Virus record (IMG/VR): IMGVR_UViG_2526164662_000049
DNA length: 44,479 nucleotides
Direction: 5' to 3' (one strand)
Source: a virus
Lineage: Duplodnaviria > Heunggongvirae > Uroviricota > Caudoviricetes
Shown: positions 1,067-43,900 of the stretch, one piece after another
How positions within the stretch are numbered: the stretch's first letter is position 1
Layout of the letters: each line of letters begins with the position of its first letter
Made by a program: the position numbers and the translations under genes
Notes under the pieces: model-generated
What the model was told of the DNA's origin: nothing
The model's database searches: none
The model's input: the letters and a program-made list of their open reading frames with translations, nothing else

Positions 1067-1098
1067 TAAAAAGAGACCGAACACGATTCCTGTTTTCG
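1067..1098. repeat. attL-like imperfect copy of sdsR 3' terminus (aaaaagagaccgaacacgattcctgttttcg)
   Basis: about 23/25 identity with the sdsR 3' end at 43877-43905; direct repeat flanking the prophage. Confidence 0.5.
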
Positions 1099-1397
1099 TC
1101 AACAAACAAGAAACCCTTTTTAAATTAATGTGTTAAGCAAAATTACGCTCATCTTTTAATCCCAAACACGTACCATTGCATATTAATGCATTCAATTAGT
1201 TACCATTTTTTTCGAGTTTTTTAGAGAAAATTTCGGGACTATTTCAGACCAATCCAGGCAGAAATAAGCAATCCCTATATTGAATGATTCTGCAACAATT
1301 ATGTAAAATCACCTCAGGATGATTTTCACTCAAACTCGCGCTATCGAACGTCCATCAGCCAGCCGTGGCACGTTCTTGCATACGACGTGCTACGGTT

Positions 1398-1651
1398 TCA
1401 TTTATCTCCGACTGGAAACTTCTTATACAAAGTCGATACGCCAACATCATAAATGATCGCCACCTTCTGGCGAGGAACGCCTGATGCAATTAATCGCCCG
1501 GCCTGCGCCCATTGTTCATCTGTTAGGTTTGGCCTACGGCTACCTATCCAACCTCCAGTGAGTGCTCAGCTAATCCCGCCTGCGTTCGCTCAACAATCAT
1601 TTCCCTTTCCATTTTGTCCAATTGTCCCCAGTACATCATGGAGAGCCCCAT
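1398..1651 (-). pseudogene. truncated, frameshifted serine DNA invertase (Pin/Gin family, C-terminal half only)
   Basis: two frames give MEREMIVERTQAGLAEH and IGSRRPNLTDEQWAQAGRLIASGVPRQKVAIIYDVGVSTLYKKFPVGDK, matching invertase C-terminal HTH; N-terminal catalytic half absent. Confidence 0.6.
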
Positions 1652-1809
1652 TAGTGCTCTGGTATTAGTGATTTTTAATATTTGGAGTTTAGCAGATGGC
1701 ACAACCCTGATTGTGTTCCCTTCAATTGATCTATTATTTTTATCAGTTATTTAGTATGCTTACCTTATCAATTAAAGTTTCATAATTACAAAATTGGGTC
1801 AGTATATAA

Positions 1810-2610
1810 ATGAATAAAAGAAAAACGCTTTTCAATATACAAGCACTAAGGTTTATTGCTGCAGCTATGGTGGTTTTGGCACATGCCGAACTTGGACAAT
1901 ATGGCATTGGGAATATCGAAATCCTTGCATCTCTGGGAGGATTTGGCGTTATTATATTTTTCATAATTAGTGGGTTTATTATACCTTACGTAGCATATGG
2001 TGGCTCTCAATCAGAAGGAGAATTCAAAATATCTGCAGGGAACTTTTTTATGCGAAGAGTAATAAGAATAATCCCGGTATATGCTTTAATTACCGCCCTT
2101 TGCGTTCTATCAGCCTTCATAGTAAAACATTATATATCTTCCCCAACTCCACCTATTGCTTATTGGTGGCCCGAAACAAAAATCAGTCTTCAATGGTATC
2201 TTGAGAGTATTACATTCACTCACTGGCATCGCGATGCAATTCTAAGTATAGGTTGGACATTACAACTTGAATTTTTGTTTTATACTTCTTTTGCATTTTT
2301 TATTGCTATCAAATTATCAAGGTTAGAGTATATAGAGATCTTATTTTTAACTATATCCATAGTAGCTAATATTTTAACTTATCAAAATAACAGCATCATA
2401 TTCGAAATTCTTCCGTTCATGAAAACACTGGCAAGACCAGAAATGGTCGTATTTGCTATGGGTATGTTTATGTATCGATTATACTTACTGGGCGCTATGT
2501 TAAAAAAAACAATTGCGCTTACAATATTAACTTTGTTTATTCCCACATTCTTATTATGTGAATACTTTAATATTACAACAAACATGGGGGGGAATGGCAT
2601 CGTCCTTTGA
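1810..2610 (+). CDS. membrane acyltransferase family 3 (O-antigen acetylase-like), N-terminal 266 aa; interrupted at poly-G
   Basis: multi-TM ORF, strongly AT-rich; acyltransferase_3-like N-terminus (RFIAAAMVVLAHA); ends 18 nt after a 7-G run. Confidence 0.75.
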   Translation: MNKRKTLFNIQALRFIAAAMVVLAHAELGQYGIGNIEILASLGGFGVIIFFIISGFIIPYVAYGGSQSEGEFKISAGNFFMRRVIRIIPVYALITALCVLSAFIVKHYISSPTPPIAYWWPETKISLQWYLESITFTHWHRDAILSIGWTLQLEFLFYTSFAFFIAIKLSRLEYIEILFLTISIVANILTYQNNSIIFEILPFMKTLARPEMVVFAMGMFMYRLYLLGAMLKKTIALTILTLFIPTFLLCEYFNITTNMGGNGIVL

Positions 2611-2900
2611 TATGGGGGTTTTTCGCTTTTTATGGTGTCTGGGCAGCGTTGAGCCTTGAAGGTAAAATAAAACCGGCTAAACTTATTATTTTCCTCGGTG
2701 ATGCTTCATATAGTATATATTTGACGCATGGTTTGATTACAGCTTGGGTATCATATATGTTTGTGTCTTTCGGACTTATTGATTATTCCAATGTATTTCT
2801 ATATATTGGAATATACTTTATAATAAGTTGTGCGCCTGGCAGCGTCATTCATATGTACATAGAAAAACCCATCGCAGAATTTTTAAAACGTTTTGTTTGA
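2607..2900 (+). CDS. acyltransferase C-terminal fragment in shifted frame
   Basis: 97 aa hydrophobic ORF (TTG start in track) contiguous with upstream ORF; a +1 G in the 2586-2592 tract would fuse both into about 360 aa. Confidence 0.45.
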   Translation: MIWGFFAFYGVWAALSLEGKIKPAKLIIFLGDASYSIYLTHGLITAWVSYMFVSFGLIDYSNVFLYIGIYFIISCAPGSVIHMYIEKPIAEFLKRFV

Positions 2901-2952
2901 CCAAATGGTCATAACTACCCCCCTTAAAATACGAAAGTAAATAATTAGAACA

Positions 2953-2979
2953 TGTGCTTTGAGTTAAACACTCAAAGCA
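2953..2979. terminator. hairpin between convergent acyltransferase and tail fibre assembly gene
   Basis: perfect 11 bp inverted repeat gtgctttgagt / actcaaagcac followed by A/T-rich run. Confidence 0.4.
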
Positions 2980-3128
2980 CAAAATAAAAAGCGCTGCCAT
3001 TGTCTATTTTGCCCCTTCTCACGCTCGTTTTTTATTTTATAATAATACACCTCCAGTTACACTTTTGTAATTAAAAGCATTAATCATCAATTAGTTCATC
3101 CCTTAATCTAACTCTTCCCCAAACGTTC

Positions 3129-41876: not shown

Positions 41877-41939
41877 TATTTACTATGGCGGTGTAGCCTC
41901 ACCGCCATAACAAAACTTTATTTTATGAGAGAAAAGACA

Positions 41940-42134
41940 ATGCGGTATGAAAAAGTCAAACCATGTCCGTTTTGTGGTTGTCCATCAGTAACGGTGAAAG
42001 CCATTTCAGGATATTACCGCGCAAAGTGTAACGGATGCGAATCCCGAACTGGCTATAGTGGAAGTGAAAAAGAAGCACTCGAAAGATGGAATAAACGAAC
42101 TACTGGAAATAATAATGGAGGTGTTCATGTATAA
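41940..42134 (+). CDS. ralR: Lar/RalR restriction-alleviation protein (type I toxin RalR-like)
   Basis: 64 aa MRYEKVKPCPFCGCPSVTVKAISGYYRAKCNGCESRTGY... Cys4 motif; matches recalled Rac RalR. Confidence 0.7.
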   Translation: MRYEKVKPCPFCGCPSVTVKAISGYYRAKCNGCESRTGYSGSEKEALERWNKRTTGNNNGGVHV

Positions 42135-42315
42135 AATTACTGCCACTATTGAAAAGGAAGGTGGCACTCCTACTAACTGGACAAGGTACTCAAAAACAAA
42201 ATTAACCAAATCAGAATGCGAAAAAATGCTCTCAGGGAAAAAAGAAGCAGGCGTTTCCAGAGAGCAGAAAGTAAAGCTGATAAATTTTAATTGCGAGAAG
42301 CTTCTGTCCTCGTGA
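42127..42315 (+). CDS. ydaC: YdaC-like protein (DUF1187-like)
   Basis: 62 aa MYKITATIEKEGGTPTNWTRY...; start overlaps ralR stop; Rac-like order. Confidence 0.5.
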   Translation: MYKITATIEKEGGTPTNWTRYSKTKLTKSECEKMLSGKKEAGVSREQKVKLINFNCEKLLSS

Positions 42316-42415
42316 GTTGCATTATATACAAATTAGAACTTCATAGCTGATTATTAAAAATCAACCACACCCGCCAGTATTCTGTATATTTACTGGCGGT
42401 CATATCGTAAGAGGT

Positions 42416-42703
42416 ATGGCAATGAATCTTGTGACACTCAAAACGTGGGGAAAACTCAGATATCCGGATAACCCACCATCAATATCAACGCTGAGACGAT
42501 GGGCAAGGAATGGAAACATTTATCCTGCACCTGAACTACACGGGAGGAGTTACAGAGTGGTTCCGGAGGCTTTCTATATCAACCCAAATAAGGTTGATAC
42601 CGATATAACACACCATCAGCCTAATGGGCGACAAGGGAGAGACAGTCCGTTACTGGAGAAGTTAAAACATGCAGCGGAAAAAATACGATCCCAATTTGCC
42701 TAA
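42416..42703 (+). CDS. xis: excisionase-like protein
   Basis: 95 aa ORF immediately upstream of and overlapping integrase start. Confidence 0.55.
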   Translation: MAMNLVTLKTWGKLRYPDNPPSISTLRRWARNGNIYPAPELHGRSYRVVPEAFYINPNKVDTDITHHQPNGRQGRDSPLLEKLKHAAEKIRSQFA

Positions 42704-43745
42704 AAACTTAACATATCGAAGGAGGGACAAAGCATATTACTGGCGCAACCCTCTGACGAAAGAAGAATTTACACTAGGTAAAATTTCAAGAAGAGATGCA
42801 GTAGCGCAGGCAATTGAAGCAAATCATTATATATACAAAAACTACTCTCCTGCTGCCTTAATTGAAAAGCTTAAAGGGTTCGACTCATTTACTATGGCAG
42901 ACTGGATTGAACGTTACAAAACGATTCTTATAAGGAGAAAAGTGTCCAGAAATACTTATAAAATTCGGGTAAATCAACTGGAGACAATAAAAGAAAAATT
43001 GGGAGGGATTTTACTGACAGAAATAACAACTCGCCATATTGCCGAGTTTCTTGATTTGTGGATTGAAGGAGGGAAAAACACAATGGCAGGATCAATGCGT
43101 TCTGTGTTGTCTGATATGTTTCGCGAGGCCATTGTTGAAGGACGTATATCTCAAAATCCAGTAACGCCAACAAGAGCACCGAAAATAGTAGTTACAAGAG
43201 AACGACTGAAACTAAAGACATACAACTGCATCAGGGAGGCAGCAGATCAACTTCCGGCATGGTTCCCATTAGCTATGGATTTAGCCCTTGTAACAGGACA
43301 ACGTCGCGAAGACATAACGAATATGCGGTTCAGTGATATTTATGATGATCGTCTCCACATCAGGCAAATTAAGACAGGAATGATGATTGCTATCCCCCTG
43401 TCACTCAGCCTTCCTGTCGCTGGTCTACGGCTTGGTACAGTAGTTGAACGGTGCCGCCTGGTAAGCCGGGGAGATTATCTAATCAGTGCCGGGATTAGAA
43501 AAAACAGCCCTGACGGCAGCATTCACCCGGATGGCCTGACAAAAAAATTTGTCGCAGCCAGAAAATTAACAGGTATCCAGTTCAGTGAAAACCCACCAAC
43601 TTTTCACGAGATCAGAAGTCTGGCTGGACGATTGTACAAAGAAACATGTGGAGAAGAATTTGCCCAGCGCCTACTTGGTCACACATCGGAGAAGACAACA
43701 AAAATGTATCTTGATGAGCGAGAAAAAACGTACTTACTGCTCTGA
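42669..43745 (+). CDS. int: lambda-family tyrosine integrase
   Basis: 358 aa; collinear similarity to lambda Int incl. HELRSL and LLGH..xxxY C-terminal motifs. Confidence 0.85.
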
Positions 43746-43865
43746 TTTTAACGTAAATGGATTGTTAAATGTGTTTTGGTTGTGATATAACCAAAAAAGA
43801 CCGGAATACAGAAATTCGAGTAAATTTCGGGGAATTTCGGGAAGACGTTTGCAACTGATTGATTT

Positions 43866-43900
43866 TAAATACAATTAAAAAAAGACCGAATACGATTCCT
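43866..43900. repeat. attR core region (sdsR 3' terminus reconstituted at prophage junction)
   Basis: aaaaaaagaccgaatacgattcctgtattcggtcc; direct repeat of 1067-1098; partial third copy at 43793-43815. Confidence 0.5.

Follow-up and report, generated by a model that had tools for sequence, protein, structure and literature searches.

Organization of the occupied sdsR locus

The DNA analyzed here, referred to throughout as the window, is a stretch of 44,479 nucleotides (IMG/VR virus record IMGVR_UViG_2526164662_000049) in which the small RNA (sRNA) locus sdsR/ryeA of Escherichia coli is occupied by a prophage. The left flank of the window carries the chromosomal genes pphA and yebW and the right flank carries yebY; the gene for the sRNA SdsR (RyeB) and its antisense partner RyeA (SraC) lie beside yebY, and the prophage integrase gene points toward them. 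An earlier note on this DNA, made from its letters alone, had placed an intact SdsR at 43877-43979 adjoining yebY, a diverged copy of its 3′ terminus at 1067-1098 beside pphA, and phage DNA between the two. The features at the locus and its junctions are as follows.

277-936, minus strand: pphA, serine/threonine phosphatase, chromosomal gene left of the insertion (Pfam Metallophos; RefSeq on the identical flank)
1014-1030, plus strand: probable -10 region of the native ryeA promoter (TGTTATGGT, 1014-1022) and RyeA starts (1028-1030), stranded at the left junction
1062-1098: left junction, B-O-P′ (attB left arm, core, attP right arm), with the original, now displaced, tail and descending stem of sdsR at 1062-1082, followed by the core and by the start of phage sequence at 1094-1098
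1083-1093 and 43892-43902: crossover core, 11 bp, ACGATTCCTGT, bounded in the left copy by the attB/attP mismatches at 1082 and 1094
1094-43891: phage-specific DNA between the cores (42,809 bp insertion counting one core)
42416-42703, plus strand: excisionase, overlapping the start of int (PHROG 629; Pfam Exc)
42669-43745, plus strand: lambda-family tyrosine integrase, 358 aa, reading toward sdsR (Pfam arm-binding, central and catalytic domains)
43871-43907: right junction, P-O-B′ (attP left arm, core at 43892-43902, attB right arm)
43877-43979, minus strand: SdsR (RyeB), of which 43877-43891 is phage, 43892-43902 common core and 43903-43979 chromosomal
43903-44108, plus strand: RyeA (SraC) chromosomal body and terminator, cut from the native promoter (Rfam; mapped 3′ ends)
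44138-44479, minus strand: yebY (Pfam DUF2511; RefSeq)

The placement of SdsR in the earlier note holds. Rfam model RF00111 matches 43976-43877 on the minus strand over model positions 1-100 of 100 (118.1 bits against a gathering threshold of 38), the published SdsR 5′ end GCAAGGCAAC falls at window 43979 (primer table, PMC6610125), and the gene lies downstream of yebY with RyeA/SraC antisense to it (RF00101, 43873-44017, plus strand, 179 bits). The intervening DNA is likewise phage, since 29 of the 30 large open reading frames (ORFs) scanned against PHROGs match phage families.

Empty sites, attP and junction anatomy

A repeat search of the window recovered a direct repeat of 37 nt, identical at 32 positions (86%), with copies at 1062-1098 and 43871-43907 that are 42,809 bp apart. 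The copy of the SdsR end previously seen beside pphA falls within the left one, and the core itself is now refined to 1083-1093. A 27-mer of the SdsR terminator gave 0 hits over 100 shuffles of the window.

Unoccupied sites were searched for in 5426 complete E. coli genomes, using the left flank joined to the right flank as the query. In 5191 of these genomes pphA and yebY are contiguous and the joined flanks match as a single locus, and the two empty sites whose sequences were compared, those of K-12 J53 and a second strain, hold a single core copy within an uninterrupted sdsR. The xis-int-attR-sdsR arrangement of the window was found in 228 complete E. coli genomes at a query coverage of at least 80%, and the sdsR site is occupied by this lineage in about 4% of complete E. 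coli genomes. The earlier note had proposed this flank alignment, naming presence of the segment in phage-free strains or absence of the repeat from empty sites as the results that would speak against integration; the outcome favors integration. A contiguous attP was found in phage PP818812.1, which matches the window at 94.7% identity over 900 nt from the int 3′ end through the site into the opposite arm. The two parental sites read as follows.

attB (K-12 J53 and the second empty strain): GATAAAAAGAGACCGAAC / core ACGATTCCTGT / ATTCGGTCCAGGG
attP (phage PP818812.1, contiguous): AATTAAAAAAAGACCGAAT / core ACGATTCCTGT / TTTCGTCAACAAAC

In a four-way comparison with the J53 attB and the PP818812 attP, the two junctions of the window prove to be reciprocal attB x attP recombinants. 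The left copy carries the chromosomal variants G1073 and C1082 and then phage P′ sequence from T1094 onward; the right copy carries the phage variants A43882 and T43891 followed by chromosomal sequence. Both 11-bp cores are identical, and because attB and attP mismatch on either side of them (C/T at 1082/43891 and T/A at 1094/43903), strand exchange is placed inside the 11-bp core. This prophage was inserted by textbook Campbell integration, and the suggestion that a phage had entered the 3′ end of an RNA gene and supplied a replacement end is thereby accounted for base by base. Junctions are named left and right by window coordinates here; by lambda convention the int-proximal one would be attL. 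Excision would be predicted to restore a precise attB (GACCGAACACGATTCCTGTATTCGG; junction sequence GACCGAAC-ACGATTCCTGT-ATTCGG) and an attP of GACCGAAT-ACGATTCCTGT-TTTCGTC. The attP agrees with the terminator and tail of sdsR at 28 of 31 bases. SdsR nt ~73-96 of 103 contain the core (43892-43902) and the 24-mer at 43884-43907, in keeping with the PhiW104-type site, given in a review as the last 23 bp of ryeB (PMC7380047).

These comparisons also decide against the opposite history, in which the 42.8 kb would be ancestral chromosome deleted in K-12-like strains and the repeat a product of chance or a deletion scar. Such a history would be compatible with the bare presence/absence polymorphism only. 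The segment is absent from 96% of genomes, across all phylogroups, its content is phage, its junctions are exact attB x attP recombinants and a contiguous attP exists in a phage genome, so that we regard an ancestral origin as refuted, with almost no probability left to it.

Integrase and attachment-site arms

The integrase and lambda Int (5j0n) align over their full lengths (E = 3.6e-72), and the R-K-HxxR-H-Y residues are kept. In this alignment VTGQR, KTG, FHEIR, LLGH and MY correspond to lambda R212, K235, H308/R311, H333 and Y342. The catalytic domain matches PF00589 at 61.7 bits, and the PF09003 arm-binding domain scores 28.1 bits against a cut-off of 22. The phage DNA next to the cores contains elements of the kind expected in the attachment site of such an enzyme, which we list as candidates.

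1210-1238, plus strand: candidate arm-type Int sites of the P′ arm, TTTCGAG (1210) and TTTCGGG (1231)
43794-43812, plus strand: further copy of the left core half-site with mismatches, AAAAAAGACCGGAATACAG, kept across lineages and lying 83 bp upstream of the core
43812-43842, plus strand: three tandem candidate arm-type repeats at ~10 bp spacing, AATTCGAGT / AATTTCGGGG / AATTTCGGGA
43852-43864, minus strand: candidate integration host factor (IHF) site with perfect consensus, AATCAATCAGTTG, between the arm repeats and the core

Within the 44 kb, the exact 9-mer AATTTCGGG is found only at 1229, 43823 and 43833, each time on the phage side and no more than 140 nt from a core. The looser motif [AT]TTCG[AG]G occurs five times within 200 nt of the cores, always on the plus strand (binomial p = 5e-6), as a tandem at 43814/43825/43835 and a pair at 1210/1231. 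The IHF position is occupied in 24 of the 88 distinct P arms among the matches listed.

An exact-pattern scan of IMG/VR with the 24-mer returned at least 120 contigs. Among the matches listed, 102 of the 104 junctions joined to the SdsR body have an integrase 46-100% identical to that of the window at the same locus; the remaining two are single contigs. Their P arms share an architecture of an imperfect left half-site copy, three tandem ~10-bp repeats, a spacer, an A run and then GACCGAAT, with a tandem repeat sequence that differs between lineages. Two contigs (L045 and L121) have apparent deletions between the two left-half-site copies. A search of genome contigs with the integrase found only two loci, one in E. 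coli and one in Shigella flexneri, as a single-protein query finds just close relatives. In S. flexneri the integrase and arm adjoin sdsR, in an error-ridden source record (CP182556.1) with many small indels through sdsR and yebY that are probably assembly errors. The junction of E. coli ECMA0423 (CP178302.1), GAACCGAACACGATT, has an extra A and a C for T, again probably through assembly error.

The phage-supplied 3′ end of SdsR

The empty-site reading, from J53 and another strain, is AAAAAGAGACCGAACACGATTCCTGTATTCGG, and the right-hand copy in the window is AAAAAAAGACCGAATACGATTCCTGTATTCGG. Since the variants of the left copy are chromosomal and those of the right copy are phage, the 3′ end of the resident SdsR is phage-supplied; the part concerned is nt ~89-103, and it carries two changes relative to the native sequence. 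The earlier note had given a single difference from the K-12 tail. Its G to A change (43882) is present, and the count has to be raised to two by a C to T change at 43891. In the sRNA, the change at 43891 is G89A, which turns a U.G pair into a U-A pair, and that at 43882 is C98U, which turns UCUUUUU into UUUUUUU and so lengthens the U tract. The U tract matters for termination and for Hfq binding.

The view that the resident terminator is supplied by the phage and may be altered is thus borne out at the level of sequence, by 2 nt, and the predicted energy of the hairpin is unchanged. Native and phage-supplied terminators are predicted to form the same 11-bp hairpin at -15.4 kcal/mol, so the idea that the phage version is the stronger one was rejected, the U tract being the sole difference. 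The orphan copy at the left junction was also considered as a terminator and rejected, as it does not fold (-4.4 kcal/mol, z = 0.4). On its promoter side sdsR equals K-12 over the 170 nt compared, and SdsR function is probably unchanged.

Consequences for RyeA and pphA

Two effects on the locus escaped the earlier note: the promoter and 5′ end of ryeA are detached from the rest of the gene, and pphA is detached from the sdsR promoter. The primer used to map the RyeA start, BHIA+10R (Choi et al., PMC6610125), ends at window 1039, which puts the RyeA +1 at 1030; the hexamer at 1014-1022 is probably the ryeA -10, judging from this mapped start. With +1 at 1030, the prophage separates the ryeA promoter and ~53 nt at the RyeA 5′ end, on its left, from the remainder of RyeA, on its right, which runs down to the RyeA 3′ ends at +261 to +270 (PMC6610125), or about 44099-44108. 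In E. coli the main transcription of pphA is read-through from the sdsR promoter (PMC6610125), which is now 42.8 kb from pphA, and we would expect pphA expression to drop in the lysogen.

The phage may bring a substitute promoter for RyeA. The P arm carries an extended -10-like motif that points toward sdsR.

43783-43791, plus strand: extended -10-like motif TGATATAAC, candidate replacement ryeA promoter by presumed function

Its form TGnTAT(R)(R)N occurs 90-112 nt before GACC in 81 of the 90 distinct P arms among the matches listed, a count inflated by related sequences, and shuffle controls averaged 1.1 and never exceeded 5. The hexamer TATAAC does not have the usual final T. The native E. 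coli equivalent of the motif is TGTTATGGT at 1014-1022, shortly before the mapped starts of RyeA. RyeA may thus now be transcribed from a phage-borne promoter, as the position and conservation of the motif suggest. In some lineages the motif sits within the coding end of the integrase gene, and in others ~40 nt past the stop codon. In Salmonella and Shigella, SraC is ~35 nt longer than in E. coli and its -10 box lies ~35 bp further upstream (Frohlich et al., PMC3333887); from the hexamer end to GACC there are 88 nt in the largest other phage lineage and 35 nt fewer, 53, in E. coli. A second candidate for the ryeA promoter, the sigma-70-like TTTGCA-16-TACAAT at 43848-43875, was rejected because it overlaps the perfect IHF consensus and scan hits did not exceed those in shuffles.

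Integration may not be neutral for the host. If the SdsR/RyeA/pphA circuit is rewired, lysogens would make RyeA in smaller amounts or altered form, with SdsR raised and pphA lowered, which would amount to lysogenic conversion. The geometry, with the RyeA +1 (1030) and pphA left of the insertion and the sdsR promoter right of it, points in this direction, as do the read-through that normally serves pphA and the repression of sdsR by ryeA transcription (PMC6610125). In Salmonella, PhiW104 lysogeny lowers ryeA and raises ryeB, as summarized in a review (PMC7380047). However, RyeA may again be made with the help of the conserved motif in the phage arm, deletion of the sraC promoter changed SdsR only about 1.5-fold (PMC3333887), and the change of expression in the lysogen is itself predicted from the geometry. 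We consider the chances of such rewiring to be about even.

The motif also bears on the native spacer between pphA and sdsR. Window 959-1023 aligns with the 3′-terminal 64 nt of an integrase gene from another sdsR-site lineage (z = 6.5, 300 shuffles); blastn E-values for this match are only 0.03-1.3, and the match is always at the syntenic spot. In the pphA-sdsR spacer (959-1074) it is followed by the common sequence AGATAAAAAGAGACC, and the mapped ryeA -10 region TGTTATGGT corresponds to the last codons of the other-lineage integrase. The pphA gene is itself a homologue of the lambda phosphatase gene (PMC6610125). We tentatively suggest, at somewhat less than even probability, that phages of this integrase clade carry spare parts for both RNAs, namely the SdsR 3′ end and a ryeA promoter, and that the native pphA-sdsR spacer is a fossil phage arm. 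As part of this suggestion, the TGnTAT motif may be a phage ryeA promoter held at a fixed ~90-110 nt from the core. A deletion of ~35 nt of arm repeats in the fossil arm would then account for the extra ~35 nt of SraC in Salmonella and Shigella. The 'empty' site of E. coli may, on this view, be what an older integration left behind.

Prophage gene content

The functions assigned by PHROGs cover integration, recombination, immunity, replication, antitermination, lysis, packaging, head, contractile tail, baseplate and fibers, and the prophage carries the full gene set for lysogeny, replication, lysis and morphogenesis that is expected of an intact phage. Away from the junctions its modules are arranged as follows.

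1810-2900, plus strand: O-acetyltransferase moron in split frames (PHROG 3333 positions 2-257 and 261-361 on two ORFs)
3129-23985, minus strand: late module with terminase small and large subunits, portal, protease, major head protein, sheath, tape measure, baseplate, fiber and fiber assembly
24748-28276, minus strand: endolysin, holin, anti-repressor with C4 and IsrK RNAs, and Q antiterminator
33175-35974: immunity and replication, with cI-like (35555-35974, plus), cro-like (35213-35458, minus), cII-like, O-like initiator and DnaC-like loader genes
37684-41876, plus strand: recE and recT, Rac-type recombination module

By sequence comparison, the early region is Rac-like and the virion module resembles SEN34 and vB_EcoM-611R5 in being of the contractile-tail type. 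With vB_EcoM-611R5 the late half shares ~97% identity across 62% of the query (window 1099-23000). The C4 antisense RNA, its a1/b1 targets and IsrK lie at 27384-27582 (minus strand), directly upstream of the anti-repressor gene (26720-27331), in the layout of an immI-like, Gifsy-1-like control region. Other prophage RNAs are RalA, the RalR antitoxin (42133-42311, minus), a sok/hok-type RNA (29752-29927, minus) and DicF (36619-36670, plus).

The O-acetyltransferase gene (Acyl_transf_3) is broken near 2607 and is probably a pseudogene, or else contains a sequencing error; NZ_CP102488 has an intact copy of 363 aa. Only the C-terminal remnant of a Pin-type DNA invertase is found at ~1320-1700 (minus strand), where other lysogens have an intact pinE beside pphA. 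Many lambdoid prophages of E. coli are defective. The frameshifted acetyltransferase and the invertase remnant would fit a fixed, defective remnant whose junctions are historical scars and which neither excises nor forms virions now. However, the integrase, excisionase, repressor, cro, replication, Q, lysis, terminase, portal, head, sheath, tape measure, baseplate and fiber genes are all full-length ORFs, the 11-bp cores at the two ends are identical, and near relatives of both halves, vB_EcoM-611R5 and pPE4, have been deposited as phage genomes. We therefore consider a defective remnant unlikely.

Integration into the sdsR terminator

We conclude with high confidence that the window contains a complete, lambda-like prophage of 42.8 kb that Int integrated into the sdsR 3′ end of E. 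coli, supplying a near-identical replacement for that end. What is shown directly is how the junctions are built, that unoccupied sites exist, that attP is contiguous in a phage genome, to which family the integrase belongs and that the prophage is complete. In the proposed course of events, a mosaic lambdoid temperate phage entered the chromosomal sdsR 3′ end by Int-mediated site-specific recombination, with strand exchange taking place within ACGATTCCTGT, which forms the terminator loop and the start of its descending strand. In SdsR, both the descending terminator strand and the U tail now come from the integrase-proximal phage arm. As the arm supplies both, a full-length SdsR with a working-looking terminator is kept. 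The original sdsR tail is left as an orphan beside pphA, and the sigma-70 promoter of ryeA, the first ~53 nt of RyeA and pphA are displaced by 42.8 kb from the sRNA locus.

Several points weigh against this account or parts of it. Excision and plaque formation by this prophage are predicted from sequence, and a frameshifted acetyltransferase and an invertase remnant are present. The left 2.3 kb (window 700-3000) was not matched in one place in any complete E. coli genome of the collection, so the exact mosaic is unsampled. The occupied locus could stem from homologous recombination with another lysogen and not from fresh integration. The two substitutions may affect termination or Hfq binding.

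With these qualifications, the locus is a clean and fully resolved case in which an sRNA terminator serves as a phage attachment site. SdsR regulates tolC, mutS, porins and yhcB. Given these targets and the connection of RyeA and pphA to the same promoters, lysogens and non-lysogens may differ in stationary-phase regulation, a possible difference of importance when sRNA phenotypes are compared across strains.

Comparison with known systems

This type of integration is already known from Salmonella phage PhiW104, and the present prophage is the same phenomenon. The PhiW104 site is the last 23 bp of ryeB (Balbontin et al. 2008, J Bacteriol 190:4075, as cited in PMC7380047 and PMC3333887), and its lysogeny alters the 5′ portion of RyeA, according to the review (PMC7380047). 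The ryeA/ryeB locus has been described as a continuing phage attachment site (PMC3333887), ryeB is a known phage target in Salmonella (Bobay et al., PMC3603311), and 'RyeB' has been used as a label for an island target (PMC10111431). Our literature searches found no explicit description of an E. coli case of sdsR attachment. As far as the 2008 Salmonella description is summarized in later papers, the mechanism found here adds nothing beyond it. As summarized there, both systems use a site in the last ~23 bp of ryeB, internal to ryeA, rebuild the sRNA 3′ end and give RyeA a phage-derived 5′ part. They differ in host, which here is E. coli, and in the contractile-tail virion module of the present prophage; the native E. 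coli sdsR also differs from the phage copy at two flanking bases, which reduces perfect identity to only 11 bp. A Salmonella prophage record, ZC-S1_prp, has an integrase 73.7% identical to that of the window.

A deposited phage genome close to the prophage at the attachment site is PP818812.1 ('Actinobacillus phage vB_Apl-pPE4'). Its integrase is 98.3% identical, its early region is similarly Rac-like, and its attP equals the window reconstruction at the core and ~30 nt on each side, with 5 substitutions in 290 nt; its late genes are different. The Actinobacillus host given in the record looks doubtful given that the phage is near-identical to E. coli prophages.

With lambda and HK022 the prophage shares a full-length integrase homologue (39-41% identity, E = 3.6e-72 to lambda Int structures), Xis, an arm-binding domain, tandem arm-type repeats in each arm, an IHF consensus that lies between arm and core, and an int gene beside attP. 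In contrast to the gal-bio intergenic site of lambda, the target here is an sRNA terminator, and the arm-type and core sequences differ.

The integration of phages into tRNA and tmRNA 3′ ends (Campbell; Williams 2002, as cited in PMC3603311) offers the broader parallel. In those systems, as here, the phage brings a duplicate of the 3′ end of a structured RNA gene, crossover occurs in or near a hairpin loop, int abuts the restored gene, and a displaced 3′ fragment remains at the far junction. The present target differs in being an Hfq-binding sRNA whose 3′ hairpin is a Rho-independent terminator and whose locus is bidirectional, so that the restoration of SdsR truncates RyeA.

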